From: Escherichia coli
Lineage (GTDB): Bacteria; Pseudomonadota; Gammaproteobacteria; Enterobacterales; Enterobacteriaceae
Direction: 5' to 3' (one strand)
Assembly: GCF_050920415.1 (NCBI RefSeq)
Contig: NZ_CP169309.1
Length of the DNA stretch: 64,000 bases
The notes under the pieces were generated by a model. The model saw nothing but the letters and a program-made list of their open reading frames with translations. It had not been told where the DNA came from and did not search any database. Of this stretch, positions 26,421 to 53,984 are shown one piece after another; the stretch's first letter is position 1; the number at the start of each line of letters is the position of its first letter. The position numbers and the translations under genes were made by a program.

Positions 26421-26434
26421 TAAAGAAATTCCTA
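26421..26434 (+). promoter_or_regulatory. Candidate RcsAB box upstream of the colanic acid operon
   Basis: taaagaaattccta is ~11/14 matches to my recalled RcsAB consensus TaAGaatatTCctA, ~450 bp upstream of wza. Confidence 0.35.
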
Positions 26435-26655
26435 AAAAACATATTGATTGACACTTAATATAATTCTTAAAAATAGCCAATTGCCGAATTGTTACCTTGC
26501 CTGCTATTCCGTTAGCTGTAACACTTCCTCCTGCATTATTGGAAGCCAATATTCAATTACCATAATGCCACCTTATATCTGGAAAATTAATTCACGGAAT
26601 AACGCTTTTTCATAATCAACTGCATGATGAAAGAGTTAGAAAATCTAAACTAAAT

Positions 26656-26694
26656 CAGTGTATTGGTAGCTAAAAAGCCAGGGGCGGTAGCGTG
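26656..26694 (+). promoter_or_regulatory. JUMPstart element with ops (GGCGGTAGCGTG) in the wza leader; RfaH recruitment site
   Basis: cagtgtattggtagctaaaaagccaggggcggtagcgtg; ops at 26683..26694. Confidence 0.75.
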
Positions 26695-26872: not shown

Positions 26873-28012
26873 ATGATGAAATCCAAAATGAAATTGATGC
26901 CATTATTGGTGTCAGTAACCTTGATAAGCGGTTGCACAGTACTTCCGGGCAGCAATATGTCGACGATGGGTAAAGACGTCATCAAACAGCAGGATGCTGA
27001 TTTCGATCTCGACAAAATGGTGAATGTTTATCCGCTGACCCCGCGCCTGATTGATCAATTACGCCCACGCCCGAACGTCGCGCGCCCCAATATGACGCTG
27101 GAAAGCGAGATTGCCAATTATCAATATCGTGTCGGGCCGGGCGACGTTCTTAATGTCACCGTCTGGGATCACCCGGAACTCACCACGCCAGCTGGTCAGT
27201 ACCGCAGCTCCAGCGACACCGGCAACTGGGTACAGCCTGACGGCACTATGTTCTACCCGTATATCGGCAAGGTTCACGTGGTGGGGAAAACGCTCGCTGA
27301 AATCCGCAGTGATATTACCGGGCGCTTAGCGACGTACATCGCTGACCCACAGGTGGACGTTAATATCGCCGCCTTCCGCTCGCAAAAGGCCTATATCTCC
27401 GGTCAGGTGAATAAATCCGGTCAACAGGCGATCACCAACGTACCATTGACCATTCTCGACGCCATTAACGCCGCAGGTGGCCTGACCGATACCGCTGACT
27501 GGCGCAACGTGGTGCTAACACACAATGGTCGTGAAGAACGCATTTCTTTGCAGGCGCTGATGCAAAACGGTGACCTCAATCAGAATCGACTGCTTTACCC
27601 CGGCGATATCCTCTACGTGCCGCGTAATGATGATCTGAAAGTGTTTGTGATGGGTGAAGTGAAGAAACAGAGCACCCTGAAAATGGACTTTAGCGGCATG
27701 ACCTTGACTGAAGCCCTGGGCAATGCCGAAGGTATCGACATGACCACCTCCAACGCCAGCGGCATCTTTGTCATTCGTCCGCTGAAAGGCGAGGGTGGGC
27801 GAAACGGCAAGATCGCCAATATCTACCAACTGGATATGTCCGATGCCACGTCGCTGGTGATGGCGACAGAATTCCGCCTGCAGCCTTATGACGTGGTGTA
27901 TGTCACCACCGCCCCGGTTTCCCGCTGGAACCGTCTGATCAATCAGTTGCTGCCAACTATTAGCGGTGTCCGTTACATGACGGATACAGCCAGCGACATT
28001 CATAACTGGTAA
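26873..28012 (+). CDS. wza: Outer-membrane polysaccharide export lipoprotein Wza
   Basis: 379 aa, lipobox-like LISGC near the N-terminus; first gene of the colanic acid cluster. Confidence 0.92.
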
Positions 28013-28017
28013 TCGTC

Positions 28018-28461
28018 ATGTTTAACAACATCTTAGTTGTCTGTGTCGGCAATATTTGCCGTTCCCCGACGGCGGAACGCTTACTGCAACGTTATCACCC
28101 TGAGCTGAAAGTAGAATCCGCTGGTCTCGGCGCACTGGTCGGTAAAGGGGCTGATCCTACTGCCATCAGTGTTGCTGCAGAACATCAACTGTCTCTGGAA
28201 GGTCACTGTGCCCGTCAAATCAGCCGCAGCCTGTGTCGCAACTACGACCTGATTTTGACCATGGAAAAGCGCCATATCGAACGCTTATGCGAGATGGCAC
28301 CTGAGATGCGCGGCAAAGTGATGCTGTTTGGTCACTGGGATAACGAATGTGAAATCCCCGATCCGTATCGCAAAAGCCGGGAAACGTTTGCAGCGGTGTA
28401 CACATTACTTGAACGGTCTGCCCGCCAGTGGGCGCAGGCATTGAACGCAGAGCAGGTATAA
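28018..28461 (+). CDS. wzb: Low-molecular-weight protein-tyrosine phosphatase Wzb
   Basis: 147 aa; N-terminal CVGNICRSP (CX5R P-loop). Confidence 0.92.
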   Translation: MFNNILVVCVGNICRSPTAERLLQRYHPELKVESAGLGALVGKGADPTAISVAAEHQLSLEGHCARQISRSLCRNYDLILTMEKRHIERLCEMAPEMRGKVMLFGHWDNECEIPDPYRKSRETFAAVYTLLERSARQWAQALNAEQV

Positions 28462-28463
28462 CA

Positions 28464-30626
28464 ATGACAGAAAAAGTAAAACAACATGCCGCTCCGGTAA
28501 CGGGCAGTGATGAAATCGATATTGGTCGCTTGGTCGGCACCGTCATTGAAGCGCGCTGGTGGGTAATTGGCATCACCGCCGTATTCGCCCTCTGTGCTGT
28601 GGTTTACACCTTCTTCGCTACGCCGATATACAGCGCCGACGCACTGGTACAAATCGAGCAAAGCAGCGGCAATTCGTTAGTGCAGGATATCGGCTCGGCA
28701 TTAGCCAACAAACCGCCAGCATCGGACGCCGAGATCCAGTTGATTCGCTCGCGTCTGGTGCTTGGTAAAACGGTGGACGATCTTGACCTCGATATTGCGG
28801 TGAGCAAAAACACGTTCCCCATTTTCGGTGCGGGCTGGGATCGCCTGATGGGACGTCAGAACGAGACAGTAAAAGTGACCACCTTTAACCGTCCAAAAGA
28901 GATGGTGGATCAGGTGTTTACGCTTAATGTGCTGGACAACAAAAATTACACTTTGAGCAGCGACGGTGGCTTTAGCGCTCGTGGGCAAGCGGGCCAGATG
29001 CTGAAAAAAGAAGGCGTCACACTGATGGTTGAAGCCATTCACGCCAGCCCGGGCAGTGAGTTTACCGTCACCAAATACTCCACGCTGGGGATGATCAACC
29101 AACTGCAAAACAGCCTGACGGTAACGGAGAACGGCAAAGACGCTGGCGTACTGAGCCTGACTTATACCGGTGAAGATCGCGAACAGATCCGCGACATTCT
29201 TAACAGTATCGCCCGTAACTATCAGGAACAAAATATTGAGCGCAAATCGGCGGAAGCGTCGAAAAGCCTCGCCTTCCTCGCGCAACAGTTACCAGAAGTA
29301 CGCAGCCGCCTTGATGTTGCTGAAAACAAACTGAATGCCTTCCGTCAGGATAAAGATTCTGTTGATCTGCCGCTGGAAGCGAAAGCGGTGCTCGATTCGA
29401 TGGTGAACATCGACGCGCAGTTGAACGAACTGACCTTTAAAGAGGCGGAAATCTCCAAGCTGTACACCAAAGTTCACCCGGCGTACCGCACGCTGCTGGA
29501 GAAACGTCAGGCGCTGGAAGAAGAGAAAGCCAAACTTAACGGTCGCGTAACGGCGATGCCGAAAACCCAGCAGGAAATTGTCCGTCTGACCCGCGATGTC
29601 GAGTCTGGTCAACAGGTCTATATGCAACTGCTGAATAAAGAGCAGGAGCTGAAAATCACCGAAGCCAGCACCGTCGGCGATGTGCGCATTGTTGACCCGG
29701 CAATCACCCAGCCTGGCGTGCTGAAACCGAAGAAAGGGCTGATTATCCTCGGCGCGATTATCCTTGGCCTGATGCTCTCTATCGTGGGTGTGCTGCTGCG
29801 CTCGTTGTTTAATCGCGGCATCGAAAGCCCGCAGGTGCTGGAAGAACACGGCATCAGCGTCTATGCCAGCATCCCGCTGTCGGAATGGCAAAAAGCGCGC
29901 GATAGCGTCAAAACCATCAAAGGGGTTAAACGCTATAAACAGAGCCAGCTACTGGCGGTGGGGAATCCAACCGATCTGGCGATTGAAGCCATCCGTAGTC
30001 TGCGTACCAGTTTGCACTTCGCGATGATGCAGGCACAGAACAATGTGTTGATGATGACCGGGGTTAGCCCGTCAATCGGTAAAACCTTTGTCTGCGCCAA
30101 CCTGGCGGCGGTCATTAGCCAGACCAATAAACGGGTGTTGTTGATCGACTGTGATATGCGCAAAGGCTACACCCACGAGCTGTTGGGCACCAATAACGTC
30201 AATGGCCTGTCGGAAATTCTGATTGGTCAGGGCGATATTACTACCGCTGCTAAACCGACCTCTATTGCCAAATTTGACCTGATCCCGCGCGGTGAGGTGC
30301 CGCCAAATCCTTCCGAACTGTTGATGAGCGAACGCTTTGCGGAACTGGTGAGCTGGGCGAGTAAAAACTATGACCTGGTGTTGATTGATACGCCGCCGAT
30401 TCTGGCAGTGACCGATGCCGCGATTGTCGGGCGGCATGTCGGAACCACGTTGATGGTGGCGCGTTATGCGGTCAACACCTTGAAAGAAGTGGAAACCAGT
30501 CTGAGCCGCTTTGAGCAAAACGGTATTCCGGTGAAAGGGGTGATTCTGAACTCTATCTTCCGCCGCGCCAGCGCGTATCAGGATTATGGCTATTACGAAT
30601 ACGAATATAAGTCGGACGCGAAATAA
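28464..30626 (+). CDS. wzc: Tyrosine autokinase / polysaccharide co-polymerase Wzc
   Basis: ORF track frame starts at 28428; the likely start is ATG at 28464 (MTEKVKQHAAP...), 720 aa; Walker A GVSPSIGKT; C-terminal tyrosine cluster YQDYGYYEYEY. Confidence 0.92.
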   Translation: MTEKVKQHAAPVTGSDEIDIGRLVGTVIEARWWVIGITAVFALCAVVYTFFATPIYSADALVQIEQSSGNSLVQDIGSALANKPPASDAEIQLIRSRLVLGKTVDDLDLDIAVSKNTFPIFGAGWDRLMGRQNETVKVTTFNRPKEMVDQVFTLNVLDNKNYTLSSDGGFSARGQAGQMLKKEGVTLMVEAIHASPGSEFTVTKYSTLGMINQLQNSLTVTENGKDAGVLSLTYTGEDREQIRDILNSIARNYQEQNIERKSAEASKSLAFLAQQLPEVRSRLDVAENKLNAFRQDKDSVDLPLEAKAVLDSMVNIDAQLNELTFKEAEISKLYTKVHPAYRTLLEKRQALEEEKAKLNGRVTAMPKTQQEIVRLTRDVESGQQVYMQLLNKEQELKITEASTVGDVRIVDPAITQPGVLKPKKGLIILGAIILGLMLSIVGVLLRSLFNRGIESPQVLEEHGISVYASIPLSEWQKARDSVKTIKGVKRYKQSQLLAVGNPTDLAIEAIRSLRTSLHFAMMQAQNNVLMMTGVSPSIGKTFVCANLAAVISQTNKRVLLIDCDMRKGYTHELLGTNNVNGLSEILIGQGDITTAAKPTSIAKFDLIPRGEVPPNPSELLMSERFAELVSWASKNYDLVLIDTPPILAVTDAAIVGRHVGTTLMVARYAVNTLKEVETSLSRFEQNGIPVKGVILNSIFRRASAYQDYGYYEYEYKSDAK

Positions 30627-30635
30627 CGAGATCCG

Positions 30636-30745
30636 CTGTCGGATGCGATGCTGACGCATCTTATCCGACCTACGTTCACGCCGCATCAGGCAAGCAAACC
30701 CGCTCCGTAGGCCGGATAAGGCGTTCACGCCGCATCCGGCAACAG
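30636..30745. repeat. BIME (several REP palindromes) between wzc and wcaA
   Basis: gtcggatgcgatgctgacgcatcttatccgacctacg ... cgtaggccggataaggcgttcacgccgcatccggc. Confidence 0.7.
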
Positions 30746-30803
30746 AACCTGTAAACCAGCTTATAAACCGGCAGAACATCTCGATACTCCGGGAGAACAA
30801 CCT

Positions 30804-31643
30804 ATGAAAGACAATCCGCTGATCTCAATCTATATGCCGACCTGGAACCGCCAACAACTGGCGATTCGGGCGATAAAATCGGTCCTGCGCCAGGACTACA
30901 GCAACTGGGAGATGATTATCGTGGATGATTGCTCCACCTCCTGGGAACAGTTGCAACAGTACGTCACCGCCCTCAACGACTCGCGCATTACGTACATTCA
31001 CAACGACATTAACAGCGGGGCGTGCGCGGTACGTAACCAGGCGATTATGCTGGCGCAAGGGGAATACATCACCGGGATCGATGACGATGATGAATGGACA
31101 CCCAACCGCCTGAGCGTCTTCCTCGCCCATAAACAGCAACTGGTCACACATGCGTTCTTGTACGCCAACGACTACGTTTGCCAGGGCGAAGTTTATTCCC
31201 AACCGGCAAGCTTGCCGCTGTATCCCAAATCGCCGTATTCACGCCGCCTGTTCTACAAACGCAATATCATTGGCAATCAGGTTTTTACCTGGGCGTGGCG
31301 TTTCAAAGAGTGTTTGTTCGATACCGAACTGAAAGCGGCACAGGATTACGACATCTTCCTGCGAATGGTGGTGGAGTACGGCGAACCGTGGAAAGTGGAA
31401 GAGGCGACGCAGATCCTGCATATCAATCACGGCGAAATGCAGATCACCTCGTCACCGAAAAAATTCTCCGGGTACTTCCACTTTTATCGTAAGCACAAAG
31501 ACAAATTCGACCGCGCCAGCAAGAAATATCAGTTGTTTACCCTCTACCAGATCCGCAATAAACGCATGACCTGGCGCACCTTGTTGACGCTGCTGTCGGT
31601 GCGTAACGGCAAACGTCTGGCTGATGGAATTCGGGGGCGCTAA
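30804..31643 (+). CDS. wcaA: Colanic acid glycosyltransferase WcaA (GT2)
   Basis: 279 aa; position and family motifs. Confidence 0.88.
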   Translation: MKDNPLISIYMPTWNRQQLAIRAIKSVLRQDYSNWEMIIVDDCSTSWEQLQQYVTALNDSRITYIHNDINSGACAVRNQAIMLAQGEYITGIDDDDEWTPNRLSVFLAHKQQLVTHAFLYANDYVCQGEVYSQPASLPLYPKSPYSRRLFYKRNIIGNQVFTWAWRFKECLFDTELKAAQDYDIFLRMVVEYGEPWKVEEATQILHINHGEMQITSSPKKFSGYFHFYRKHKDKFDRASKKYQLFTLYQIRNKRMTWRTLLTLLSVRNGKRLADGIRGR

Positions 31644-31645
31644 AG

Positions 31646-32134
31646 ATGCTGGAAGATCTGCGCGCCAACAGCTGGAGTTTACGCCCGTGCTGCATGGTTC
31701 TTGCCTATCGCGTTGCTCATTTTTGTTCAGTGTGGCGCAAAAAAAACGTCCTCAACAATCTGTGGGCGGCCCCGCTGCTGGTGCTGTATCGCATTATCAC
31801 CGAATGCTTTTTCGGTTATGAAATCCAGGCCGCCGCGACCATTGGCCGACGCTTTACTATCCATCACGGCTATGCCGTAGTGATCAATAAAAACGTGGTC
31901 GCGGGGGATGATTTCACCATTCGCCACGGCGTCACTATCGGCAATCGTGGTGCCGATAACATGGCATGTCCACACATTGGCAACGGCGTCGAACTTGGTG
32001 CCAACGTCATTATCCTTGGCGATATCACGATTGGTAACAACGTCACCGTGGGGGCGGGCAGCGTGGTGCTCGACGCAATCCCGGACAACGCGCTGGTGGT
32101 GGGAGAAAAAGCGCGAGTGAAGGTAATTAAATGA
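31646..32134 (+). CDS. wcaB: Colanic acid acetyltransferase WcaB (hexapeptide repeat)
   Basis: 162 aa; hexapeptide repeats (IGNRGADN..., IGNNVTVGAGSVV). Confidence 0.88.
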   Translation: MLEDLRANSWSLRPCCMVLAYRVAHFCSVWRKKNVLNNLWAAPLLVLYRIITECFFGYEIQAAATIGRRFTIHHGYAVVINKNVVAGDDFTIRHGVTIGNRGADNMACPHIGNGVELGANVIILGDITIGNNVTVGAGSVVLDAIPDNALVVGEKARVKVIK

Positions 32135-33348
32135 ATATTCTGCAATTTAATGTGCGACTGGCGGAAGGCGGGGCGGCAGGTGTGGCGTTAGATCTCCACC
32201 AGCGCGCGCTGCAACAGGGGCTGGCGTCACATTTTGTCTACGGCTACGGCAAAGGTGGCAAAGAGAGCGTCAGCCATCAGAACTATCCGCAGGTCATCAA
32301 ACATACGCCGCGGATGACCGCGATGGCGAACATTGCCCTGTTTCGTCTGTTTAATCGCGATCTGTTCGGCAATTTCAATGAGTTATATCGCACCATTACT
32401 CGCACACCGGGACCGGTAGTCCTGCATTTTCATGTGCTGCACAGCTACTGGTTGAATCTTAAGAGCGTGGTGCGCTTTTGCGAAAAGGTGAAAAACCACA
32501 AACCGGATGTCACTTTGGTCTGGACACTGCACGATCACTGGAGCGTTACCGGACGCTGTGCTTTTACCGACGGTTGCGAAGGCTGGAAAACGGGCTGCCA
32601 GAAATGCCCGACCTTAAATAACTATCCGCCGGTGAAGATTGATCGCGCGCACCAGCTGGTGGCGGGCAAACGGCAGTTATTTCGCGAGATGCTGGCGCTG
32701 GGCTGTCAGTTTATTTCCCCCAGCCAGCATGTGGCTGATGCTTTCAATAGTCTGTACGGTCCAGGGCGTTGCCGGATTATCAATAATGGCATTGATATGG
32801 CAACCGAAGCGATTCTGGCAGACTTGCCTCCGGTGCGCGAAACCCAGGGCAAGCCGAAAATCGCGGTGGTGGCGCATGACCTGCGTTACGACGGCAAAAC
32901 TAACCAGCAACTGGTGCGCGAGATGATGGCGCTGGGTGACAAAATCGAACTGCATACCTTTGGTAAGTTTTCGCCGTTCACCGCTGGTAACGTGGTTAAT
33001 CACGGCTTTGAAACTGACAAGCGCAAGTTGATGAGCGCGCTTAATCAGATGGATGCGCTGGTGTTCAGTTCTCGCGTCGATAACTACCCGCTGATTTTGT
33101 GTGAGGCGTTATCAATTGGTGTGCCGGTGATTGCCACCCATAGCGATGCGGCGCGGGAAGTGCTGCAAAAATCCGGCGGTAAAACCGTCAGCGAAGAAGA
33201 CGTGCTGAAACTGGTGCAGTTAAGCAAACCGGAAATCGCGCAGGCGATATTTGGTACCACGCTGGCTGAGTTCAGCCAACGCAGCCGCGCCGCCTACAGT
33301 GGACAACAGATGCTGGAGGAGTATGTCAACTTCTATCAGAATCTGTAG
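32131..33348 (+). CDS. wcaC: Colanic acid glycosyltransferase WcaC (GT1/GT4)
   Basis: 405 aa; position. Confidence 0.88.
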   Translation: MNILQFNVRLAEGGAAGVALDLHQRALQQGLASHFVYGYGKGGKESVSHQNYPQVIKHTPRMTAMANIALFRLFNRDLFGNFNELYRTITRTPGPVVLHFHVLHSYWLNLKSVVRFCEKVKNHKPDVTLVWTLHDHWSVTGRCAFTDGCEGWKTGCQKCPTLNNYPPVKIDRAHQLVAGKRQLFREMLALGCQFISPSQHVADAFNSLYGPGRCRIINNGIDMATEAILADLPPVRETQGKPKIAVVAHDLRYDGKTNQQLVREMMALGDKIELHTFGKFSPFTAGNVVNHGFETDKRKLMSALNQMDALVFSSRVDNYPLILCEALSIGVPVIATHSDAAREVLQKSGGKTVSEEDVLKLVQLSKPEIAQAIFGTTLAEFSQRSRAAYSGQQMLEEYVNFYQNL

Positions 33349-34543
33349 CTACCTGCTGCTGCCGCTGATTTACCTGCTGGTTAACGTCAAAATTGCCCAG
33401 CTTGGTGAAAGTTTCCCCATCACCATCGTCACTTTTTTACCTGTCTTGTTACTGCTGTTTTTAGAGCGCATCAGCGTTAAAAAATTGATGATTGCCTTAG
33501 GGATTGGTGCGGGACTCACGGCGTTTAACTACTTGTTTGGTCAGTCGTTGGATGCCAGTAAATACGTCACTTCAACCATGCTGTTTGTCTATATTGTGAT
33601 CATTATTGGCATGGTGTGGAGTATTCGCTTTAAAACGATTTCGCCACACAACCATCGCAAGATATTACGTTTCTTTTATCTGGTGGTGGGGCTGGTGGTG
33701 GCGCTGGCGGCGGTGGAGATGGCGCAAATTATCCTCACTGGCGGCAGCAGTATTATGGAGTCGATTTCGAAATATCTGATTTACAGCAACAGCTATGTGC
33801 TGAATTTCATTAAATTCGGCGGCAAGCGCACAACAGCACTTTATTTCGAACCGGCATTTTTCGCTCTGGCATTAATCTCAATTTGGCTCAGCATCAAACA
33901 GTTTGGTATCAAAACGCCTAAAACCGATGCTATGATTCTCGCAGGGATAATATTATCCGGATCGTTTTCAGGGGTTATGACCTTTATCCTGTTTTATTTG
34001 TTGGAGTGGGCGTTTCAATATCTGAACAAAGAGGCGATTAAGAAAAAGTTACCGTTAGCATTGATTTCTCTGGCTGTATTCCTGGTTGGTGTGGTAATCG
34101 CGTTTCCTTATATTTCCACCCGCTTGGGCGATTTAGGTACGGAAGGATCGTCATCGTATTATCGTATTGTCGGTCCACTGGTGATGGTCGGTTATTCTTT
34201 GAGCCATATTGACGGTGTAGTCAGATTTGGCTCACTTTATGAATATGTCGCATCATTCGGAATATTTAACGGTGCGGATGTCGGAAAAACCATAGACAAT
34301 GGTTTGTATCTGCTGATTATTTATTTTTCCTGGTTCGCAGTGCTTTTATCACTGTGGTACATGGGGAAAGTGATAAAAATGATGATCAACGCTTTTGGTG
34401 ATAATCGCAATTTTCGTGTGCAGCTCTATCTTTTTACTCCGGTGTCGCTGTTTTTTACCGGTTCGATATTTAGCCCGGAATATGCATTTTTAATCGTCTG
34501 TCCGTTTATTTTGCGAAAAGCGTTAAATATACACCCTAAATAA
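33323..34543 (+). CDS. wcaD: Colanic acid polymerase WcaD
   Basis: ORF track frame starts at 33251 inside wcaC; the likely start is ATG at 33323 (MSTSIRICSYLLLPLIYLL...); polytopic membrane protein. Confidence 0.85.
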   Translation: MSTSIRICSYLLLPLIYLLVNVKIAQLGESFPITIVTFLPVLLLLFLERISVKKLMIALGIGAGLTAFNYLFGQSLDASKYVTSTMLFVYIVIIIGMVWSIRFKTISPHNHRKILRFFYLVVGLVVALAAVEMAQIILTGGSSIMESISKYLIYSNSYVLNFIKFGGKRTTALYFEPAFFALALISIWLSIKQFGIKTPKTDAMILAGIILSGSFSGVMTFILFYLLEWAFQYLNKEAIKKKLPLALISLAVFLVGVVIAFPYISTRLGDLGTEGSSSYYRIVGPLVMVGYSLSHIDGVVRFGSLYEYVASFGIFNGADVGKTIDNGLYLLIIYFSWFAVLLSLWYMGKVIKMMINAFGDNRNFRVQLYLFTPVSLFFTGSIFSPEYAFLIVCPFILRKALNIHPK

Positions 34544-34547
34544 TTCG

Positions 34548-34665
<118 letters not shown>

Positions 34666-34669
34666 GAAC

Positions 34670-35416
34670 ATGTTGCTTAGCATAATCACCGTTGCGTTTC
34701 GTAACCTCGAAGGGATAGTCAAAACACACGCCTCGCTGGCGCATCTGGCGCAGGCTGACGATATCAGCTTCGAATGGATTGTTGTCGATGGCGGTTCCAA
34801 TGACGGCACCGGTGAGTATCTGGAAAATCTCAATGGTATCTATAACCTACGCTTTGTCAGTGAACCAGATAAGGGCATCTACGACGCCATGAACAAAGGC
34901 ATTGCGATGGCACAAGGCAAGTTTGCGCTGTTTCTCAACTCGGGCGATATTTTTCATCAGGATGCCGCAAATTTTGTCCGTAGGTTAAAAATGCAAAAAG
35001 ATAACGTGATGATCACCGGCGATGCGCTGCTGGATTTTGGCGACGGGCATAAAATTAAACGTCGCGCCAAACCTGGCTGGTATATTTATCACAGCCTGCC
35101 CGCCAGCCATCAGGCGATATTTTTCCCGGTATCCGGCTTGAAAAAATGGCGTTATGACCTGGAATATAAAGTTTCTTCCGATTATGCGCTGGCGGCCAAA
35201 ATGTATAAAGCCGGTTATGCATTTAAAAAACTCAATGGCCTGGTGTCTGAATTTTCTATGGGTGGGGTATCTACCACCAATAATATGGAATTGTGTGCTG
35301 ACGCGAAAAAAGTCCAACGACAAATATTACATGTGCCTGGCTTCTGGGCTGAATTATCCTGGCATTTACGCCAGCGCACGACGGGTAAGACCAAAGCCTT
35401 ATATAACAAAGTCTGA
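34670..35416 (+). CDS. wcaE: Colanic acid glycosyltransferase WcaE (GT2)
   Basis: 248 aa; position. Confidence 0.88.
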
Positions 35417-35431
35417 ATATAAGGAATACCA

Positions 35432-35980
35432 ATGCAAGATTTAAGCGGTTTCTCGGTGCCGAAAGGGTTCCGGGGCGGCAACTCTATTAAAGTGCAATTG
35501 TGGTGGGCAGTACAGGCAACATTATTTGCCTGGTCGCCACAAGTATTGTATCGCTGGCGGGCATTTTTATTACGTTTATTCGGCGCAAAAATAGGAAAAA
35601 ACGTAGTTATTCGTCCGTCAGTAAAAATTACCTATCCGTGGAAATTAACCTTAGGTGATTACGCGTGGGTCGGCGATGACGTCAATTTATATACCCTCGG
35701 TGAAATAACCATTGGCGCACATTCGGTGATATCGCAAAAAAGTTATTTATGCACCGGGAGCCACGACCATGCAAGTCGACATTTCACCATAAACGCCACG
35801 CCCATTGTGATTGGCGAGAAATGCTGGCTGGCAACCGATGTTTTTGTTGCTCCTGGCGTCACGATCGGCGACGGCACCGTCGTGGGTGCGCGAAGCAGTG
35901 TTTTTAAATCGCTTCCGGCAAATAGAGTTTGCCGGGGGAATCCCGCAGTGGTGATACGCGAACGCGTTGAAACTGAATAA
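35432..35980 (+). CDS. wcaF: Colanic acid acetyltransferase WcaF (hexapeptide repeat)
   Basis: 182 aa; position. Confidence 0.88.
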   Translation: MQDLSGFSVPKGFRGGNSIKVQLWWAVQATLFAWSPQVLYRWRAFLLRLFGAKIGKNVVIRPSVKITYPWKLTLGDYAWVGDDVNLYTLGEITIGAHSVISQKSYLCTGSHDHASRHFTINATPIVIGEKCWLATDVFVAPGVTIGDGTVVGARSSVFKSLPANRVCRGNPAVVIRERVETE

Positions 35981-36006
35981 ATTCAAAAAATACAGAGGAA
36001 TAAGAC

Positions 36007-37128
36007 ATGTCAAAAGTCGCTCTCATCACCGGTGTAACCGGACAAGACGGTTCTTACCTGGCAGAGTTTCTGCTGGAAAAAGGTTACGAGGTGCATGGTA
36101 TTAAGCGTCGTGCATCGTCATTCAACACCGAGCGCGTGGATCACATTTATCAGGATCCGCATACCTGTAACCCGAAATTCCATCTGCATTATGGCGACCT
36201 GAGTGATACCTCCAACCTGACGCGTATTTTGCGTGAAGTGCAGCCGGATGAAGTGTACAACCTGGGCGCAATGAGCCACGTTGCGGTTTCTTTTGAGTCA
36301 CCGGAATATACCGCAGACGTTGATGCGATGGGCACACTGCGTCTGCTGGAGGCGATCCGCTTCCTTGGTCTGGAAAAGAAAACCCGTTTCTATCAGGCTT
36401 CCACTTCTGAACTGTACGGTCTGGTGCAGGAAATTCCGCAGAAAGAAACCACGCCGTTCTATCCGCGATCTCCATATGCGGTCGCCAAACTGTATGCCTA
36501 CTGGATCACCGTTAACTACCGCGAATCCTACGGCATGTACGCTTGTAACGGCATTCTCTTTAACCATGAATCCCCACGCCGTGGCGAAACCTTCGTGACC
36601 CGCAAAATCACCCGCGCAATCGCCAATATCGCTCAAGGGCTGGAGTCGTGCCTGTACCTCGGCAATATGGATTCCCTGCGTGACTGGGGCCACGCCAAAG
36701 ACTACGTAAAAATGCAGTGGATGATGCTGCAACAGGAACAACCGGAAGATTTCGTTATTGCCACCGGCGTTCAGTACTCCGTGCGTCAGTTCGTGGAAAT
36801 GGCGGCGGCACAACTGGGCATCAAACTGCGCTTTGAAGGCACGGGTGTTGAAGAGAAGGGCATTGTGGTTTCCGTCACCGGGCATGACGCGCCGGGCGTT
36901 AAACCGGGTGATGTGATTATCGCCGTTGACCCGCGCTACTTCCGTCCGGCTGAAGTTGAAACGCTGCTCGGTGACCCGACCAAAGCGCACGAAAAACTGG
37001 GCTGGAAACCGGAAATCACCCTCAGAGAGATGGTGTCTGAAATGGTGGCTAATGACCTCGAAGCGGCGAAAAAACACTCTCTGCTGAAATCTCACGGCTA
37101 CGACGTGGCGATCGCGCTGGAGTCATAA
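36007..37128 (+). CDS. gmd: GDP-mannose 4,6-dehydratase
   Basis: 373 aa; N-terminal [27 protein letters not shown] (Rossmann motif). Confidence 0.93.
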
Positions 37129-37130
37129 GC

Positions 37131-38096
37131 ATGAGTAAACAACGTATTTTTATCGCTGGCCATCGCGGGATGGTCGGTTCTGCCATCAAGCGACAGCTCG
37201 AACAGCGCGGTGATGTGGAACTGGTATTACGCACCCGCGACGAACTGAACCTGCTGGACAGCCGCGCGGTGCATGATTTCTTTGCCAGCGAGCGCATTGA
37301 CCAGGTCTATCTGGCGGCGGCGAAAGTGGGCGGGATTGTCGCCAACAACACGTATCCGGCGGATTTCATCTACCAGAATATGATGATTGAGAGCAACATC
37401 ATTCACGCTGCGCATCAGAACGACGTGAACAAACTGCTGTTTCTCGGATCGTCCTGCATCTACCCAAAACTGGCAAAACAGCCGATGGCAGAAGGCGAGC
37501 TGTTACAGGGCACGCTGGAGCCGACCAACGAGCCATACGCCATTGCCAAAATCGCCGGGATCAAACTGTGCGAATCTTACAACCGCCAGTATGGACGCGA
37601 TTACCGCTCTGTCATGCCGACCAACCTGTACGGGCTGCACGACAACTTCCATCCGAATAATTCGCATGTGATCCCCGCATTGCTGCGCCGCTTCCACGAG
37701 GCGACGGCACAGAATGCACCGGACGTGGTGGTATGGGGCAGCGGTACGCCGATGCGCGAATTTCTGCATGTCGATGATATGGCGGCGGCAAGCATTCATG
37801 TCATGGAGCTGGCGCACGAAGTCTGGCTGGAGAACACCCAGCCGATGCTGTCGCACATTAACGTCGGCACGGGTGTTGACTGCACTATCCGCGAGCTGGC
37901 GCAAACCATCGCCAAAGTGGTGGGTTACAAAGGCCGGGTGGTTTTTGATGCCAGTAAACCGGATGGCACACCGCGCAAACTGCTGGATGTGACGCGCCTG
38001 CATCAGCTTGGCTGGTATCACGAAATCTCACTGGAAGCGGGGCTTGCCAGCACTTACCAGTGGTTCCTTGAGAATCAAGACCGCTTTCGGGGGTAA
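37131..38096 (+). CDS. fcl: GDP-L-fucose synthase (GDP-4-keto-6-deoxymannose 3,5-epimerase/4-reductase)
   Basis: 321 aa; [14 protein letters not shown]... Confidence 0.93.
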
Positions 38097-38578
38097 TGAT
38101 GTTTTTACGTCAGGAAGACTTTGCCACGGTAGTGCGCTCCACTCCGCTTGTCTCTCTCGACTTTATTGTCGAGAACAGCCGCGGCGAGTTTCTGCTTGGC
38201 AAAAGAACCAACCGCCCGGCACAGGGTTACTGGTTTGTGCCGGGAGGGCGCGTGCAGAAGGACGAAACGCTGGAAGCCGCATTTGAGCGGTTGACGATGG
38301 CGGAACTGGGGCTGCGTCTGCCGATAACAGCAGGCCAGTTTTACGGTGTCTGGCAGCACTTTTATGACGATAACTTCTCCGGCACGGATTTCACCACGCA
38401 CTATGTGGTGCTCGGTTTTCGCTTCAGAGTAGCGGAAGAAGAACTGTTACTGCCGGATGAGCAGCATGACGATTACCGCTGGCTGACGCCGGACGCACTG
38501 CTCGCCAGTGACAATGTTCACCCTAACAGCCGCGCCTATTTTCTCGCTGAGAAGCGTGCCGGAGTACCCGGATTATGA
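38096..38578 (+). CDS. gmm: GDP-mannose mannosyl hydrolase (Nudix)
   Basis: 160 aa; position between fcl and wcaI. Confidence 0.88.
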
Positions 38579-39798
38579 AAATACTGGTCTACGGCATTAA
38601 CTACTCGCCGGAGTTAACCGGCATCGGCAAATACACCGGCGAGATGGTGGAATGGCTTGCGGCACAAGGTCATGAGGTGCGGGTCATTACCGCACCGCCT
38701 TACTACCCGCAGTGGCAGGTGGGCGAGAACTATTCCGCCTGGCGGTACAAACGAGAAGAGGGGGCCGCCACGGTGTGGCGCTGCCCGCTGTACGTGCCAA
38801 AACAGCCGAGCACCCTGAAACGCCTGTTGCATCTCGGCAGTTTTGCCGTCAGCAGTTTTTTCCCGTTGATGGCGCAACGTCGCTGGAAGCCGGATCGCAT
38901 TATCGGCGTAGTGCCAACGCTGTTTTGCACGCCGGGAATGCGCCTGCTGGCGAAACTCTCTGGTGCGCGTACCGTGCTGCATATTCAGGATTACGAAGTA
39001 GATGCCATGCTGGGGCTGGGGCTTGCCGGAAAAGGCAAAGGCGGCAAAGTGGCACAGCTGGCGACAGCCTTCGAACGTAGCGGACTGCATAACGTCGATA
39101 ACGTCTCCACGATTTCGCGTTCGATGATGAATAAAGCCATCGAAAAAGGCGTGGCGGCAGAAAACGTCATCTTCTTCCCCAACTGGTCGGAAATCGCCCG
39201 TTTTCAATATGTTGCAGACGCCGATGTTGATGCCCTTCGTAACCAGCTTGGCCTGCCGGATAACAAAAAAATCATTCTTTACTCCGGCAATATTGGTGAA
39301 AAGCAGGGGCTGGAAAACGTTATTGAAGCTGCCGAACGCCTGCGCGATGAACCGCTGATTTTTGCCATTGTCGGGCAGGGCGGCGGCAAAGCGCGGCTGG
39401 AAAAAATGGCGCAGCAGCGCGGACTGCGCAATATGCAATTTTTCCCGCTGCAATCTTATGACGCCTTGCCTGCACTGCTGAAGATGGGCGACTGCCATCT
39501 GGTGGTGCAAAAACGCGGCGCGGCAGATGCCGTATTGCCGTCGAAACTGACCAATATTCTGGCGGTAGGCGGTAACGCGGTAATTACCGCAGAAGCTCAC
39601 ACAGAACTGGGGCAGCTTTGCGAAACCTTCCCAGGAATTGCGGTTTGCGTAGAACCGGAATCGGTCGAGGCGCTGGTGGCGGGGATTCGTCAGGCGCTCC
39701 TGCTACCCAAACACAACACGGTGGCACGTGAATATGCCGAACGCACGCTCGATAAAGAGAACGTGTTACGTCAATTTATACATGATATTCGGGGATAA
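38575..39798 (+). CDS. wcaI: Colanic acid glycosyltransferase WcaI
   Basis: 407 aa; position. Confidence 0.88.
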
Positions 39799-39800
39799 TT

Positions 39801-41237
39801 ATGTCGCAGTCGAAACTCTATCCAGTTGTGATGGCAGGTGGCTCCGGTAGCCGCTTATGGCCGCTTTCCCGCGTACTTTATCCCAAGCAGTTTTTATGCC
39901 TGAAAGGCGATCTTACCATGCTGCAAACCACCATCTGCCGCCTGAACGGCGTGGAGTGCGAAAGCCCGGTGGTGATTTGCAATGAGCAGCACCGCTTTAT
40001 TGTCGCGGAACAGCTGCGTCAACTGAACAAACTCACCGAGAACATTATTCTCGAACCGGCAGGGCGTAACACTGCACCTGCCATTGCGTTGGCGGCGCTG
40101 GCGGCAAAACGTCATAGTCCGGACAGCGATCCGTTAATGTTGGTCCTGGCGGCAGATCATGTGATTGCCGACGAAGACGCGTTCCGCGCCGCCGTGCGTA
40201 ATGCCATGCCGTATGCCGAAGCGGGCAAGCTGGTGACCTTCGGCATTGTGCCGGATCTACCTGAAACCGGATATGGCTATATTCGTCGCGGTGAAGTGTC
40301 GGCGGGTGAGCAGGATACGGTGGCCTTTGAAGTGGCGCAGTTTGTCGAAAAACCGAATCTGGAAACCGCTCAGGCCTATGTGGCAAGCGGCGAATATTAC
40401 TGGAACAGCGGTATGTTCCTGTTCCGTGCCGGACGTTATCTCGAAGAACTGAAAAAATATCGCCCGGATATTCTCGACGCCTGCGAAAAAGCGATGAGCG
40501 CCGTCGATCCGGATCTCGATTTTATTCGTGTGGATGAAGAGGCGTTTCTTGCCTGCCCGGAAGAGTCGGTGGATTACGCGGTTATGGAACGTACGGCAGA
40601 TGCCGTTGTGGTACCGATGGATGCGGGGTGGAGCGATGTCGGTTCCTGGTCCTCTTTATGGGAGATCAGCGCCCACACCGCGGAAGGCAACGTTTGCCAC
40701 GGCGATGTGATTAATCACAAAACCGAAAACAGCTACGTGTATGCCGAATCTGGCCTGGTCACCACCGTCGGGGTGAAAGATCTGGTAGTGGTGCAGACCA
40801 AAGACGCGGTGCTGATTGCCGACCGTAACGCGGTGCAGGATGTGAAAAAAGTGGTCGAGCAGATCAAAGCCGATGGTCGCCATGAGCATCGGGTGCATCG
40901 CGAAGTGTATCGCCCGTGGGGCAAATATGACTCTATCGACGCGGGCGACCGCTACCAGGTGAAACGTATCACCGTGAAACCGGGCGAGGGCTTGTCGGTA
41001 CAAATGCACCATCACCGCGCGGAACACTGGGTAGTGGTCGCGGGAACGGCAAAAGTCACCATTGACGGTGATATCAAACTGCTTGGTGAAAACGAGTCCA
41101 TTTATATTCCGCTGGGGGCAAAACACTGCCTGGAAAACCCGGGGAAAATTCCCCTCGATTTAATTGAAGTGCGCTCCGGCTCTTATCTCGAAGAGGATGA
41201 TGTGGTGCGCTTCGCGGATCGCTACGGACGGGTGTAG
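39801..41237 (+). CDS. cpsB: Mannose-1-phosphate guanylyltransferase (ManC/CpsB)
   Basis: 478 aa; [14 protein letters not shown] nucleotidyltransferase motif; C-terminal cupin. Confidence 0.92.
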
Positions 41238-41338
41238 TAGTTGAATAATCAACCGGAATAAATCTCCGGTAAATAATGACAAAAACAAAATTGGCCGTTT
41301 CGGTCAGGGCCAACTATTGCCTGAAAAAGGGTAACGAT

Positions 41339-42709
41339 ATGAAAAAATTAACCTGCTTTAAAGCCTATGATATTCGCGGAAAATTAGGCGAAGAACTGAA
41401 TGAAGATATCGCCTGGCGTATTGGGCGTGCCTATGGCGAATTTCTCAAACCGAAAACCATTGTTTTAGGCGGTGATGTCCGTCTCACCAGCGAAACCTTA
41501 AAACTGGCGCTGGCAAAAGGGTTACAGGATGCGGGCGTTGACGTGCTGGATATCGGCATGTCCGGCACCGAAGAGATCTATTTCGCCACGTTCCATCTCG
41601 GCGTGGATGGCGGCATCGAAGTTACCGCCAGCCATAATCCGATGGATTACAACGGCATGAAACTGGTGCGCGAAGGGGCTCGCCCGATCAGCGGTGATAC
41701 TGGACTGCGCGACGTCCAGCGTCTGGCAGAAGCCAACGATTTTCCTCCCGTCGATGAAACCAAACGCGGTCGCTATCAGCAAATCAACCTGCGCGACGCT
41801 TACGTTGATCATCTGTTCGGTTATATCAATGTCAAAAACCTTACGCCGCTCAAGCTGGTGATCAACTCCGGGAACGGCGCGGCGGGTCCGGTGGTGGACG
41901 CCATCGAAGCCCGCTTTAAAGCCCTCGGCGCACCCGTGGAATTGATCAAAGTACACAACACGCCGGACGGCAATTTCCCCAACGGTATTCCTAATCCATT
42001 GCTGCCGGAATGCCGCGACGATACCCGCAATGCGGTCATTAAACACGGCGCGGATATGGGTATTGCTTTTGATGGCGATTTTGACCGCTGTTTCCTGTTT
42101 GACGAAAAAGGACAGTTTATCGAGGGCTACTACATTGTCGGCCTGCTGGCAGAAGCGTTCCTCGAAAAAAATCCCGGCGCGAAGATCATCCACGATCCGC
42201 GTCTTTCCTGGAACACCGTTGATGTAGTGACTGCCGCAGGCGGCACCCCGGTGATGTCAAAAACCGGACACGCCTTTATTAAAGAACGTATGCGCAAGGA
42301 AGACGCCATCTACGGTGGCGAAATGAGCGCCCACCATTACTTCCGTGATTTCGCTTACTGCGACAGCGGCATGATCCCGTGGCTGCTGGTCGCCGAACTG
42401 GTGTGCATGAAAGGGAAAACGCTGGGCGAACTGGTGCGCGACCGCATGGCGGCATTCCCGGCAAGCGGTGAGATCAACAGCAAACTGGCGCAACCCGTTG
42501 AGGCGATTAATCGCGTCGAACAGCATTTTAGCCGCGAGGCGCTGGCGGTGGATCGCACCGATGGCATCAGCATGACCTTTGCCGACTGGCGCTTTAATCT
42601 GCGCTCCTCCAACACCGAACCGGTGGTGCGCCTGAATGTGGAATCGCGCGGTGATGTGCCGCTGATGGAAGCGCGAACGCGAACTCTGCTGACGTTGCTG
42701 AACGAGTAA
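41339..42709 (+). CDS. cpsG: Phosphomannomutase (ManB/CpsG)
   Basis: ORF track frame starts at 41276; the likely start is ATG at 41339 ([14 protein letters not shown]...), 456 aa; active-site TASHNP. Confidence 0.92.
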
Positions 42710-42763
42710 TGTCGGATCTTCCCTTACCCCATTGCGGGTAAGGGGCTAATAACAGGAACAACG

Positions 42764-44158
42764 ATGACAAATCTAAAAAAGCGCGAGCGAGCGAAAACCA
42801 ATGCATCGTTAATCTCTATGGTGCAACGCTTTTCAGATATCACCATCATGTTTGCCGGGCTATGGCTGGTTTGCGAAGTCAGCGGACTGTCATTCCTCTA
42901 CATGCACCTGTTGGTGGCGCTGATTACGCTGGTGGTGTTCCAGATGTTGGGCGGCATCACCGATTTTTATCGCTCATGGCGAGGTGTTCGGGCAACGACA
43001 GAATTTGCCCTGCTGCTGCAAAACTGGACCTTAAGCGTGATTTTTAGCGCCGGACTGGTGGCGTTCAACAATGATTTCGACACGCAACTGAAAATCTGGC
43101 TGGCGTGGTATGGGCTGACCAGCATCGGGTTGGTGGCGTGTCGTTCGTGTATTCGCATTGGTGCGGGCTGGTTGCGTAATCATGGCTATAACAAGCGTAT
43201 GGTTGCCGTAGCGGGGGATTTAGCTGCCGGGCAAATGCTGATGGAGAGCTTCCGTAATCAGCCGTGGTTAGGGTTTGAAGTGGTGGGCGTTTACCACGAC
43301 CCAAAACCGGGCGGCGTTTCTAACGACTGGGCGGGCAATCTGCAACAGCTGGTCGAGGATGCGAAAGCGGGCAAGATTCATAACGTCTATATCGCGATGC
43401 AAATGTGCGACGGCGCACGAGTGAAAAAACTGGTCCATCAACTGGCGGACACCACCTGTTCGGTGCTGCTGATCCCCGACGTCTTTACCTTCAACATTCT
43501 CCATTCACGCCTCGAAGAGATGAACGGCGTTCCGGTGGTGCCGCTGTACGACACGCCGCTTTCCGGGGTTAACCGCCTGATAAAACGTGCGGAAGACATT
43601 GTGCTGGCAACGCTGATCTTGCTGCTGATCTCCCCGGTGCTGTGCTGTATTGCGCTGGCGGTGAAACTCAGTTCACCAGGGCCGGTTATTTTCCGCCAGA
43701 CACGCTACGGCATGGATGGCAAGCCGATCAAAGTGTGGAAGTTCCGTTCCATGAAAGTGATGGAGAACGACAAAGTGGTGACCCAGGCGACGCAGAACGA
43801 TCCGCGCGTCACCAAAGTGGGGAACTTTCTGCGCCGCACCTCGCTGGATGAATTGCCGCAGTTTATCAATGTGCTGACTGGCGGGATGTCGATTGTGGGG
43901 CCACGTCCGCACGCCGTGGCGCATAACGAACAATATCGCCAGCTCATTGAAGGCTACATGCTGCGCCATAAGGTGAAACCGGGCATTACCGGCTGGGCGC
44001 AGATTAACGGCTGGCGCGGCGAAACCGACACGCTGGAGAAAATGGAAAAACGCGTCGAGTTCGACCTTGAGTACATCCGCGAATGGAGCGTCTGGTTCGA
44101 TATCAAAATCGTTTTCCTGACGGTATTCAAAGGCTTCGTTAACAAAGCGGCATATTGA
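42764..44158 (+). CDS. wcaJ: Undecaprenyl-phosphate glucose-1-phosphate transferase WcaJ (initiating transferase)
   Basis: 464 aa; N-terminal TM helices and C-terminal sugar-transferase domain (SIVGPRPHAV). Confidence 0.9.
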   Translation: MTNLKKRERAKTNASLISMVQRFSDITIMFAGLWLVCEVSGLSFLYMHLLVALITLVVFQMLGGITDFYRSWRGVRATTEFALLLQNWTLSVIFSAGLVAFNNDFDTQLKIWLAWYGLTSIGLVACRSCIRIGAGWLRNHGYNKRMVAVAGDLAAGQMLMESFRNQPWLGFEVVGVYHDPKPGGVSNDWAGNLQQLVEDAKAGKIHNVYIAMQMCDGARVKKLVHQLADTTCSVLLIPDVFTFNILHSRLEEMNGVPVVPLYDTPLSGVNRLIKRAEDIVLATLILLLISPVLCCIALAVKLSSPGPVIFRQTRYGMDGKPIKVWKFRSMKVMENDKVVTQATQNDPRVTKVGNFLRRTSLDELPQFINVLTGGMSIVGPRPHAVAHNEQYRQLIEGYMLRHKVKPGITGWAQINGWRGETDTLEKMEKRVEFDLEYIREWSVWFDIKIVFLTVFKGFVNKAAY

Positions 44159-44159
44159 T

Positions 44160-45638
44160 ATGAGCTTACGTGAAAAAACCATCAGCGGCGCGAAATGGTC
44201 GGCGATTGCCACAGTAATCATCATCGGCCTCGGGCTGGTGCAGATGACCGTGCTGGCGCGGATTATCGACAACCACCAGTTCGGTTTGCTTACCGTGTCG
44301 CTGGTGATTATCGCGCTGGCAGACACGCTTTCTGACTTCGGCATCGCTAACTCGATTATTCAGCGAAAAGAAATCAGCCATCTTGAACTCACCACGCTTT
44401 ACTGGCTGAACGTCGGGCTGGGGATCGTGGTGTGCGTGGCGGTGTTTTTGTTGAGTGATGCCATTGGTGACGTGCTGAATAACCCGGATCTGGCACCGTT
44501 GATTAAAACATTGTCGCTGGCGTTTGTGGTGATCCCCCACGGGCAACAGTTTCGCGCGTTGATGCAAAAGGAGCTGGAGTTCAACAAAATCGGCATGATC
44601 GAAACCAGCGCGGTGCTGGCGGGCTTTACTTTTACGGTGGTTAGCGCCCATTTCTGGCCGCTGGCGATGACCGCGATCCTCGGTTATCTGGTCAATAGTG
44701 CGGTAAGAACGCTGCTGTTTGGCTACTATGGTCGAAAAATTTATCGCCCCGGTCTGCATTTCTCGCTGGCGTCTGTTGCGCCGAACTTACGCTTTGGTGC
44801 CTGGCTGACGGCGGACAGCATCATCAACTATCTCAACACCAACCTTTCAACGCTGGTGCTGGCGCGTATTCTCGGCGCGGGCGTGGCAGGGGGGTACAAC
44901 CTGGCGTACAACGTGGCCGTTGTGCCGCCGATGAAACTGAACCCGATCATCACCCGCGTGTTGTTTCCGGCGTTTGCCAAAATTCAGGACGACACCGAAA
45001 AGCTGCGCGTTAACTTCTACAAGCTGCTATCGGTGGTGGGGATTATCAATTTTCCGGCGCTGCTGGGGCTGATGGTGGTGTCGAATAACTTTGTACCGCT
45101 GGTCTTTGGTGAGAAGTGGAACAGCATTATTCCGGTGCTGCAATTGCTGTGTATTGTGGGGCTACTGCGCTCAGTGGGTAACCCGATTGGCTCGCTGCTG
45201 ATGGCGAAAGCGCGGGTGGATATCAGCTTTAAATTCAATGTATTCAAAACCTTTCTGTTTATTCCGGCGATTGTTATTGGCGGGCAGATGGCGGGCGCAA
45301 TCGGCGTCACGCTTGGTTTCCTGCTGGTGCAGATTATCAACACCATTCTGAGTTATTTCGTGATGATTAAACCGGTGCTCGGTTCCAGTTATCGCCAGTA
45401 CATCCTGAGTTTATGGCTGCCGTTTTATCTCTCGCTACCGACGCTGGTGTTCAGTTATGCGCTGGGCATTGTGCTGAAAGGACAACTGACGCTGGGGACG
45501 CTGCTGGCGGTGCAAATAGTCGCGGGCGTGCTGGCATTTGTGGTGATGATTGTGCTGTCGCGCCATCCGCTGGTGGTGGAAGTGAAGCGTCAGTTTTGTC
45601 GCAGCGAAAAAATGAAAATGCTTTTGCGGGCCGGGTGA
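44160..45638 (+). CDS. wzxC: Colanic acid repeat-unit flippase WzxC
   Basis: 492 aa polytopic membrane protein; position. Confidence 0.88.
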   Translation: MSLREKTISGAKWSAIATVIIIGLGLVQMTVLARIIDNHQFGLLTVSLVIIALADTLSDFGIANSIIQRKEISHLELTTLYWLNVGLGIVVCVAVFLLSDAIGDVLNNPDLAPLIKTLSLAFVVIPHGQQFRALMQKELEFNKIGMIETSAVLAGFTFTVVSAHFWPLAMTAILGYLVNSAVRTLLFGYYGRKIYRPGLHFSLASVAPNLRFGAWLTADSIINYLNTNLSTLVLARILGAGVAGGYNLAYNVAVVPPMKLNPIITRVLFPAFAKIQDDTEKLRVNFYKLLSVVGIINFPALLGLMVVSNNFVPLVFGEKWNSIIPVLQLLCIVGLLRSVGNPIGSLLMAKARVDISFKFNVFKTFLFIPAIVIGGQMAGAIGVTLGFLLVQIINTILSYFVMIKPVLGSSYRQYILSLWLPFYLSLPTLVFSYALGIVLKGQLTLGTLLAVQIVAGVLAFVVMIVLSRHPLVVEVKRQFCRSEKMKMLLRAG

Positions 45639-45710
45639 ATGGTTGTTTTCGGTTCCGACAACGAACACAACAAACACAGCCTCACCTGGCATCAAATTTA
45701 TGAGGAAAAA

Positions 45711-48208: not shown

Positions 48209-48218
48209 AGGAGAACGC

Positions 48219-50681: not shown

Positions 50682-50939
50682 TGAAAATCTGACCGGATGT
50701 AACGGTTGATAAGAAAATTATAACGGCAGTGAAGATTCGTGGCGAAAGTAATTTGTTGCGAATATTCCTGCCGTTGTTTTATATAAACAATCAGAATAAC
50801 AACGAGTTAGCAATAGGATTTTAGTCAAAGTTTTCCAGGATTTTCCTTGTTTCCAGAGCGGATTGGTAAGACAATTAGCGTTTGAATTTTTCGGGTTTAG
50901 CGCGAGTGGGTAACGCTCGTCACATCGTAGGCATGCATG

Positions 50940-50978
50940 CAGTACTCTGGTAGCTGTAAAGCCAGGGGCGGTAGCGTG
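50940..50978 (+). promoter_or_regulatory. JUMPstart element with ops (GGCGGTAGCGTG) upstream of the O-antigen operon
   Basis: cagtactctggtagctgtaaagccaggggcggtagcgtg; ops at 50967..50978; ~75 bp upstream of rmlB. Confidence 0.75.
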
Positions 50979-53037: not shown

Positions 53038-53094
53038 TAGTTTTTGCATCTTGTTCGTGATGGTGGAACAAGATGAATTAAAAGGAATGATGAA

Positions 53095-53970: not shown

Positions 53971-53984
53971 TATGTGGGAACTCA

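Follow-up and report, generated by a model that had tools for sequence, protein, structure and literature searches.

JUMPstart elements were described by Hobbs & Reeves in 1994 in the 5' leaders of polysaccharide gene clusters and are modelled in Rfam as RF01707 (Weinberg et al. 2010), while ops and RfaH have been known since 1996-97. Recruitment of RfaH by the non-template strand of ops DNA is established both structurally and genetically, with base T6 flipped out (PMC5995543, PMC11001881). Mutagenesis singled out C3, G4, G5, T6, A7, G8 and the T11-G12 dinucleotide as the critical bases, and point mutations in ops abolish distal expression in reporter constructs (PMC5995543). RfaH suppresses pausing and Rho-dependent polarity and counteracts H-NS/StpA filaments. 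It also recruits ribosomes to messages devoid of Shine-Dalgarno sequences (PMC6391919), and transcription of the colanic-acid genes has been called a JUMPStart-RfaH antitermination system (PMC9976346).

Bacteroides UpxY, Bacillus LoaP and the phage nut and put sites likewise provide an operon-specific signal for processive antitermination in the leader. These systems involve other factors and other modes of recognition: put and nut work at the RNA level, ops as non-template DNA. Effects of rfaH on O-antigen and colanic acid were reportedly described by Wang in 1998, Navasa in 2014 and Stout in 1996. Group 1 capsule (K30-type) loci likewise carry a JUMPstart after galF, where it drives an RfaH-dependent wza-type operon.

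We analysed a stretch of 64,000 nt from an Escherichia coli genome (contig NZ_CP169309.1), hereafter the window, with a gene layout taken from the RefSeq annotation of NZ_CP169399.1, which is 100% identical over the tested stretches (window = locus + 20000). Two JUMPstart elements were found (Table 1), both of them intergenic and on the coding (non-template) strand of the genes downstream. The first ends 178 nt before the ATG of wza, the first gene of wza-wcaM, and the second lies between galF and rfbB. Unlike K30-type strains, in which colanic acid has given way to a capsule locus with wzi as its first gene, the colanic-acid cluster is intact here, and the galF-proximal JUMPstart serves the O-antigen. 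The Rfam model matched the first element with 57.3 bits (E = 1.6e-10) and the second with 60.0 bits (E = 2.7e-11; both E-values for the whole window), well beyond the gathering score of 35 bits, and both matches cover model positions 1-38 of 38. No RF01707 match was detected elsewhere in the 64-kb window.

Both elements, which an earlier note had placed at these positions on the plus strand as near-identical sequences, are present exactly there. Near-identical is slightly generous for the full length, since the two 39-nt copies agree at 33/39 positions (85%), but it holds for the ops-proximal 21 nt, which are identical; all six mismatches fall within the first 18 nt. The likeness between the copies stops at both element edges and does not reach into the flanks.

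Table 1. Features of the two polysaccharide leaders and of the neighbouring genes, in window coordinates.
Feature	Coordinates	Strand	Description
yegH	24631-26214	-	RefSeq annotation of NZ_CP169399.1; followed by a 658-nt spacer to wza
Second conserved RcsAB-box-like candidate	26376-26389		TAAGAAATATCGCA; footprint vs Citrobacter
RcsAB-box-like candidate activator site	26421..26434	+	TAAAGAAATTCCTA; partly conserved in Citrobacter
40-nt Escherichia/Citrobacter conserved block	~26489..26528	+	Candidate core promoter region; phylogenetic footprint
JUMPstart of the colanic-acid (wza) leader	26656..26694	+	cagtgtattggtagctaaaaagccaggggcggtagcgtg; Rfam RF01707, full length
JUMPstart hairpin, wza copy	26663..26681	+	TTGGT 26663-26667, loop AGCTAAAAA 26668-26676, GCCAG 26677-26681
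ops of the wza leader	26683..26694	+	Exact GGCGGTAGCGTG; pause 3' end U11 = 26693; G1 to wza ATG 190 nt
wza-wzb-wzc-wcaA...wcaM colanic-acid operon	26873..49613	+	RefSeq annotation of NZ_CP169399.1
galF	49788..50681	+	RefSeq annotation of NZ_CP169399.1; 371-nt spacer to rfbB
O-antigen promoter region (putative)	50847..50884	+	-35-like TTGTTT 50847-50852, -10-like GACAAT 50870-50875, spacing 17, TSS-equivalent G 50884
JUMPstart of the O-antigen (rfbB) leader	50940..50978	+	cagtactctggtagctgtaaagccaggggcggtagcgtg; Rfam RF01707, full length
JUMPstart hairpin, rfb copy	50947..50965	+	CTGGT 50947-50951, loop AGCTGTAAA 50952-50960, GCCAG 50961-50965
ops of the rfb leader	50967..50978	+	Exact GGCGGTAGCGTG; pause 3' end U11 = 50977; ends 74 nt before rfbB GTG (51053)
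O2/O50-type O-antigen cluster	51053..61873	+	rfbB, rfbD, rfbA, sugar 3,4-ketoisomerase, acyltransferase, aminotransferase, wzx, glycosyltransferases, rfbC, wzy

The exact ops 12-mer GGCGGTAGCGTG occurred twice in the 64 kb, each time at the end of a JUMPstart, which bears out the earlier claim of an ops inside a JUMPstart on the coding strand of the wza and rfbB (rmlB) leaders. No further site with one mismatch or less was found on either strand of the 64 kb, where 0.32 would be expected by chance. At three mismatches the count (67 sites vs about 50 expected) is uninformative. Four more GGCGGTAG cores were noted at 7427, 26096 and 39561 on the plus strand and at 6917 on the minus strand; all are located outside the two leaders and are devoid of the T11-G12 end.

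On the non-template strand, both ops copies carry the C3:G8 pair, G4, G5, T6, A7 and the T11-G12 pause dinucleotide. They correspond to the exact consensus of the E. coli ops/RfaH sites (rfb, waaQ, wza, hly, kps and tra) and, like these, reside in untranslated leaders; in CFT073, the sites at wzx, wza, rfaQ, tssH and c4518, which RfaH binds, have the same sequence. The only ORF extending over either ops is a 15-codon frame at 50937-50984 (plus strand) across the rfb JUMPstart/ops. It was rejected as a leader peptide, as it lacks a Shine-Dalgarno sequence and other alleles (UPEC, MRE162) do not conserve it, and it probably arose by chance.

Each element is built from a 7-nt CAGU-type lead, a 5-bp stem, a 9-nt loop opening with AGCT, a single G and the ops 12-mer. 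This is the 39-nt build of known JUMPstart elements with no material difference, although relative to the model the wza copy has a U.G in place of the C-G outer pair and an A-rich loop. Compared with K-12 MG1655, the wza JUMPstart is identical at 39/39 positions, while the rfb copy differs by one base (CAGTACTC vs CAGTGCTC); the O-antigen is of the O2/O50 type in the window and O16 in K-12. Both elements thus carry all the sequence-level features that define JUMPstart and ops, and they are confirmed as bona fide, ordinary and already well-known sites of this kind. Nothing in them is biologically new, and for the wza and rfb loci TSS or ChIP data from other E. coli strains have already been published.

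The hexamer GGTAGC is found twice in each element (26665-26670 and 26686-26691; 50949-50954 and 50970-50975), the first time across the 5' stem arm and the start of the loop and the second time inside ops. In Aeromonas and Shewanella, the first GGTAGC is changed to GGAAGC or GGGAGC, with AGC kept. A YCTGA motif (e.g. CCTGAA, TCTGAA or TCTGG) directly follows ops in many genera and was also observed in the wza copy of the window (TCTGGACGCCTGAAAG) but not in the rfb copy.

We consider it very likely that each element is a JUMPstart whose 3' 12 nt (ops) recruit RfaH for the downstream operon. RfaH occupancy and the mechanism at these loci are taken from the literature on homologous loci of K-12 and CFT073. 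In CFT073, the RfaH ChIP-seq signal of the wild type starts at GGCGGTAGCGTG in the O-antigen leader. Conversely, the ops of the wza leader was bound only in a mutant deleted for hns and stpA, in which the signal reached wcaL. The signal was gone in delta-rfaH, and intragenic ops-like sites did not bind RfaH. Because RfaH occupies the wza element only when H-NS and StpA are missing, this element is probably idle under ordinary growth. By analogy with these strains, we infer that both operons depend on RfaH in the strain studied here.

According to this mechanism, RNA polymerase would start upstream of each element, about 83 nt before ops at rfb and, for wza, at an Rcs-activated, H-NS-silenced promoter somewhere upstream of 26656, and would then run into the leader and pause at ops U11. 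In the paused complex, the non-template ops DNA would form a small hairpin with a C3:G8 stem that displays G5 and T6. Autoinhibited RfaH would bind these two bases, open, and stay on the polymerase through the rest of the operon. The polymerase modified in this way would exclude NusG and resist pausing, Rho-dependent polarity and H-NS/StpA roadblocks, while the refolded KOW domain of RfaH would bring in the ribosome on messages whose Shine-Dalgarno sites are poor. Both the 23-kb colanic-acid operon and the AT-rich O-antigen operon would then be expressed over their full length.

The gene content is compatible with such a role. The distal O-antigen genes have a GC content of 31-37%, and the weakest anti-Shine-Dalgarno complementarity among the 21 genes tested was that of wza and rfbB (-1.6 and -3.3 kcal/mol, respectively). 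Low distal GC and weak complementarity of wza and rfbB are both consistent with the RfaH picture. However, because the GC content of the colanic-acid cluster is ordinary (~53%), a rationale based on counter-silencing of AT-rich DNA fits this cluster less well than the O-antigen cluster.

The 5' half of JUMPstart folds into a hairpin. In the wza copy, the stem pairs are U.G, U-A, G-C, G-C and U.G, and the rfb hairpin reached -9.3 kcal/mol in folding when lengthened by two flanking pairs. A JUMPstart stem-loop is already on record in Weinberg et al. 2010, so the covariation reported here is a re-derivation. Species-representative genomes were scanned with a pattern in which only AGCT and GGGCGGTAGCGTG were fixed and both stem arms were left free. 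The scan returned at least 120 loci in Enterobacterales, Aeromonas, Shewanella, Vibrio, Idiomarina and others. Among the 121 pattern matches listed, about 35 chance matches in unrelated phyla were removed by a filter independent of pairing (an AGY motif 3-4 nt before the stem), and 70 distinct elements, including the two of the window, formed the covariation set.

In these 70 elements, stem positions were paired in 94.6% of cells vs 78.9% in shuffles, and 0/500 shuffles reached the observed value. Stem registers that had been slid paired at only 22-61%. Furthermore, cells with a double change numbered 46 vs 12.5 expected, and compensatory changes were found in 4/5 pairs. The hairpin is specific to the sense strand, because G.U pairs are frequent. 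The stem was always located exactly 1 nt from ops, with no indels between them in the 70 elements. Because the covarying stem always ends one nt before ops, its base lies at -13 when polymerase is paused at U11; the literature gives -12 and -13 as the positions where exit-channel pause hairpins are strongest.

These observations leave some room for the 5' half being a functional nascent-RNA hairpin in fixed register with ops, beyond a conserved sequence, a proposal that we regard as speculative and rather unlikely. Such a hairpin might modulate the pause at ops, for instance if it prevented backtracking and thereby kept the non-template ops hairpin on display, or could help the loading of RfaH or of the ribosome. 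In the biochemical and structural ops literature drawn on here, which used the 12-mer, the hairpin half appears without an assigned mechanism. We give a classical hairpin-stabilised pause at ops a low probability: its geometry fits (-13), but the rfaQ ops pause has been used as a non-hairpin control and is insensitive to deletion of SI3, which weakens hairpin pauses, and ops-paused complexes have been described as biochemically distinct from hairpin pauses (PMC11001881).

The same covariation could be taken to mean that the functional unit is a stem-loop of the 5' UTR acting independently of RfaH, in protein binding, stability or processing, with ops incidental. The strength of the pairing signal (94.6% vs 78.9%, with compensatory changes in four of the five pairs), its sense-strand-specific G.U pairs and the classification of JUMPstart as a cis-regulatory RNA by Rfam would all agree with an RNA element. 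However, invariance is highest in the unpaired ops 13-mer, which was fixed by our search pattern yet is invariant in the Rfam consensus too. The constant distance of 1 nt between stem and ops argues for one composite signal, and recruitment of RfaH by non-template ops DNA has been demonstrated structurally and genetically. An RNA element independent of RfaH is thus highly improbable.

Both elements were found at orthologous positions in thousands of genomes. The yegH-wza spacer was present in 4,831 of 5,426 complete E. coli genomes, and the galF-rfbB spacer was matched in 3,719 E. coli genomes of the same set. At the latter locus, the 39-mer is kept in six O-antigen alleles (O2/O50, O16, O6, O176, MRE162 and a divergent UPEC allele), although the flanks are unrelated on both sides in MRE162 and on the downstream side in O6 and O176. 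The likeness between serogroups ends exactly at the last base of ops (50978/50979), and many of the 3,719 matches stop at query position 297-298. In distant genera, the first downstream ORF encodes a Wza, Ugd, GalU/GalF-like, RfbB-like or WecA-like protein in 7/9 of those sampled.

Two Gram-positive-labelled assemblies, a 4155-bp contig of Arthrobacter sp. GMC3 and a contig of an Erysipelotrichia MAG, also carry a JUMPstart of the enterobacterial type. Both are probably contaminating contigs; the one of Arthrobacter sp. GMC3 matches the E. coli galF-rfb spacer.

From these alignments, position 50978 appears to be the 5' recombination boundary of the variable O-antigen cluster, in line with the classical and already known picture of JUMPstart. 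The 39-mer could then be mainly a conserved junction for the swapping of clusters, with no regulatory role of its own, since inter-serogroup likeness ends at 50978 and O6, O176 and MRE162 diverge right after GGCGGTAGCGTG. We give this slightly less credit than the RNA element. In Enterobacterales, Aeromonas, Shewanella and Vibrio alike, the hairpin covaries and ops is invariant, which a passive patch of homology would not maintain. Furthermore, RfaH binds polymerase at these very sites in CFT073, and the wza copy is not at a boundary of cluster exchange. The role as a junction is more plausibly a side effect of strong functional conservation than an alternative to recruitment of RfaH.

To place the rfb element relative to the start of transcription, we relied on the K-12 SMRT-Cappable-seq data (PMC6131387, Supplementary Data 2, NC_000913.3), which report a TSS of rfbB-rfbD-rfbA-rfbC at 2113231 on the minus strand. 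With the ops of K-12 rfb at 2113148-2113137, 83 nt separate this TSS from ops G1 and 56 nt from the start of JUMPstart, both of which lie downstream of the TSS. From promoter to ops, K-12 aligns with the window without indels. The context of the TSS is identical at 32/32 positions, which predicts an equivalent TSS at G50884 and a 5' UTR of 169 nt. We take the TTGTTT and GACAAT hexamers upstream of it as the putative rfb promoter. The promoter block upstream of the TSS is the best-conserved part of the galF-rfbB spacer in the six O-antigen alleles, and MRE162 diverges right after it. For the O-antigen unit of CFT073, RNA-seq places the TSS 67 nt upstream of ops.

The elements had been said in the earlier note to define the likely starts of the transcription units, a reading against which a TSS downstream of the element would have spoken; the K-12 start of rfb is upstream. 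It is correct that the elements mark the 5' ends of the units, but they lie inside the transcribed leader, 56 nt after the TSS in the case of rfb, and are not promoters. That they should be promoters or determinants of transcription start, as their place near the 5' ends of both operons might suggest, is contradicted by the K-12 and CFT073 starts, and no sigma-70-like hexamers overlap either element. RfaH itself acts after initiation in the accounts drawn on here. We attach next to no probability to this explanation. A chance repeat devoid of function, for which nothing speaks beyond the short length, can be dismissed given the Rfam E-values of 1e-10 to 1e-11, the two exact ops copies vs 0.32 expected sites at one mismatch or less, and the orthologous positions in thousands of genomes. 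Recruitment of RfaH at ops is retained as the reading of both elements.

It had also been proposed that the O-antigen operon begins after galF rather than including it. This is right for the main promoter, as the K-12 TSS is located downstream of galF, but not for all transcripts. galF has its own promoters in the wcaM-galF spacer, with K-12 TSSs 24, 89 and 132 nt before its ATG, and in the K-12 table (PMC6131387) 'novel' galF-rfbB-rfbD transcripts start at two of these three sites. No intrinsic-terminator-like site was found after wcaM or galF. Because of the K-12 read-through transcripts and the lack of a terminator-like site after galF, galF is not fully insulated, and the K-12 data indicate that some transcription enters rfb from galF. 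Read-through derived from galF would also cross ops.

Within the O-antigen cluster, a 155-codon ORF encoding an acyltransferase (dTDP-sugar pathway) was observed at 54385-54852 (plus strand), between the ketoisomerase and aminotransferase genes. RefSeq/PGAP splits the same interval into two partial pseudogene fragments in an identical genome, which may be an artefact of annotation. Directly after the cluster are an ISAs1-family transposase pseudogene with an internal stop (62245-63381, plus strand) and then a sulfatase-like gene.

In the wza leader, the distance of 190 nt from ops to wza is the same as for the RfaH-bound wza ops of CFT073. Downstream of JUMPstart the leader is nearly identical to that of K-12 MG1655, while the 80 nt just upstream of the element are the most variable part of the spacer. 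The wza operon is absent from the K-12 SMRT-Cappable-seq transcript data. In wild-type CFT073, RNAP was below background at this operon, and a sigma-70 peak upstream of wza together with RfaH signal downstream appeared only in delta-hns delta-stpA.

Candidate promoter and activator sites were obtained from a phylogenetic footprint against three Citrobacter genomes, in which all three conserved blocks are located upstream of the element (Table 1). The two RcsAB-box-like candidates (26376-26389 and 26421-26434) were judged by what we take to be the RcsAB-box consensus. The sole site that a simple sigma-70 scan returned before the wza element, TTGGAA-16-CATAAT at 26539-26566, was rejected as the wza promoter for lack of conservation in Citrobacter. 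In some genomes a 'hypothetical protein' is annotated in the yegH-wza spacer; this is a 49-codon ORF upstream of the element, read from the opposite strand, and has no bearing on it.

The 178-nt wza leader 3' of ops (26695-26872) is almost invariant relative to K-12. In Citrobacter, too, blocks of it are conserved as far as the start codon, and 26570-26650 is variable. Inside the colanic-acid operon, a full-length algC RNA motif (RF02929, 78 bits) was found at 41285-41334 (plus strand), directly before and overlapping the start of cpsG (phosphomannomutase).

For annotation, the two elements flag two long surface-polysaccharide operons, those of the colanic-acid capsule and of the O2/O50-type O-antigen, as putative RfaH-controlled units. 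Operon prediction, delimitation of the serotype cluster and engineering can profit from the placement of the O-antigen promoter between galF and rfbB.

Elsewhere in the window, three Sib antitoxin RNA genes (RF00113, 138-140 bits each) are arranged in tandem on the minus strand at 9855-9997, 10183-10325 and 10511-10653, 328 nt apart. K-12 presumably has two Sib genes at this locus (sibA and sibB). Because three are present here, this strain may carry an extra copy of the Ibs/Sib toxin-antitoxin system.
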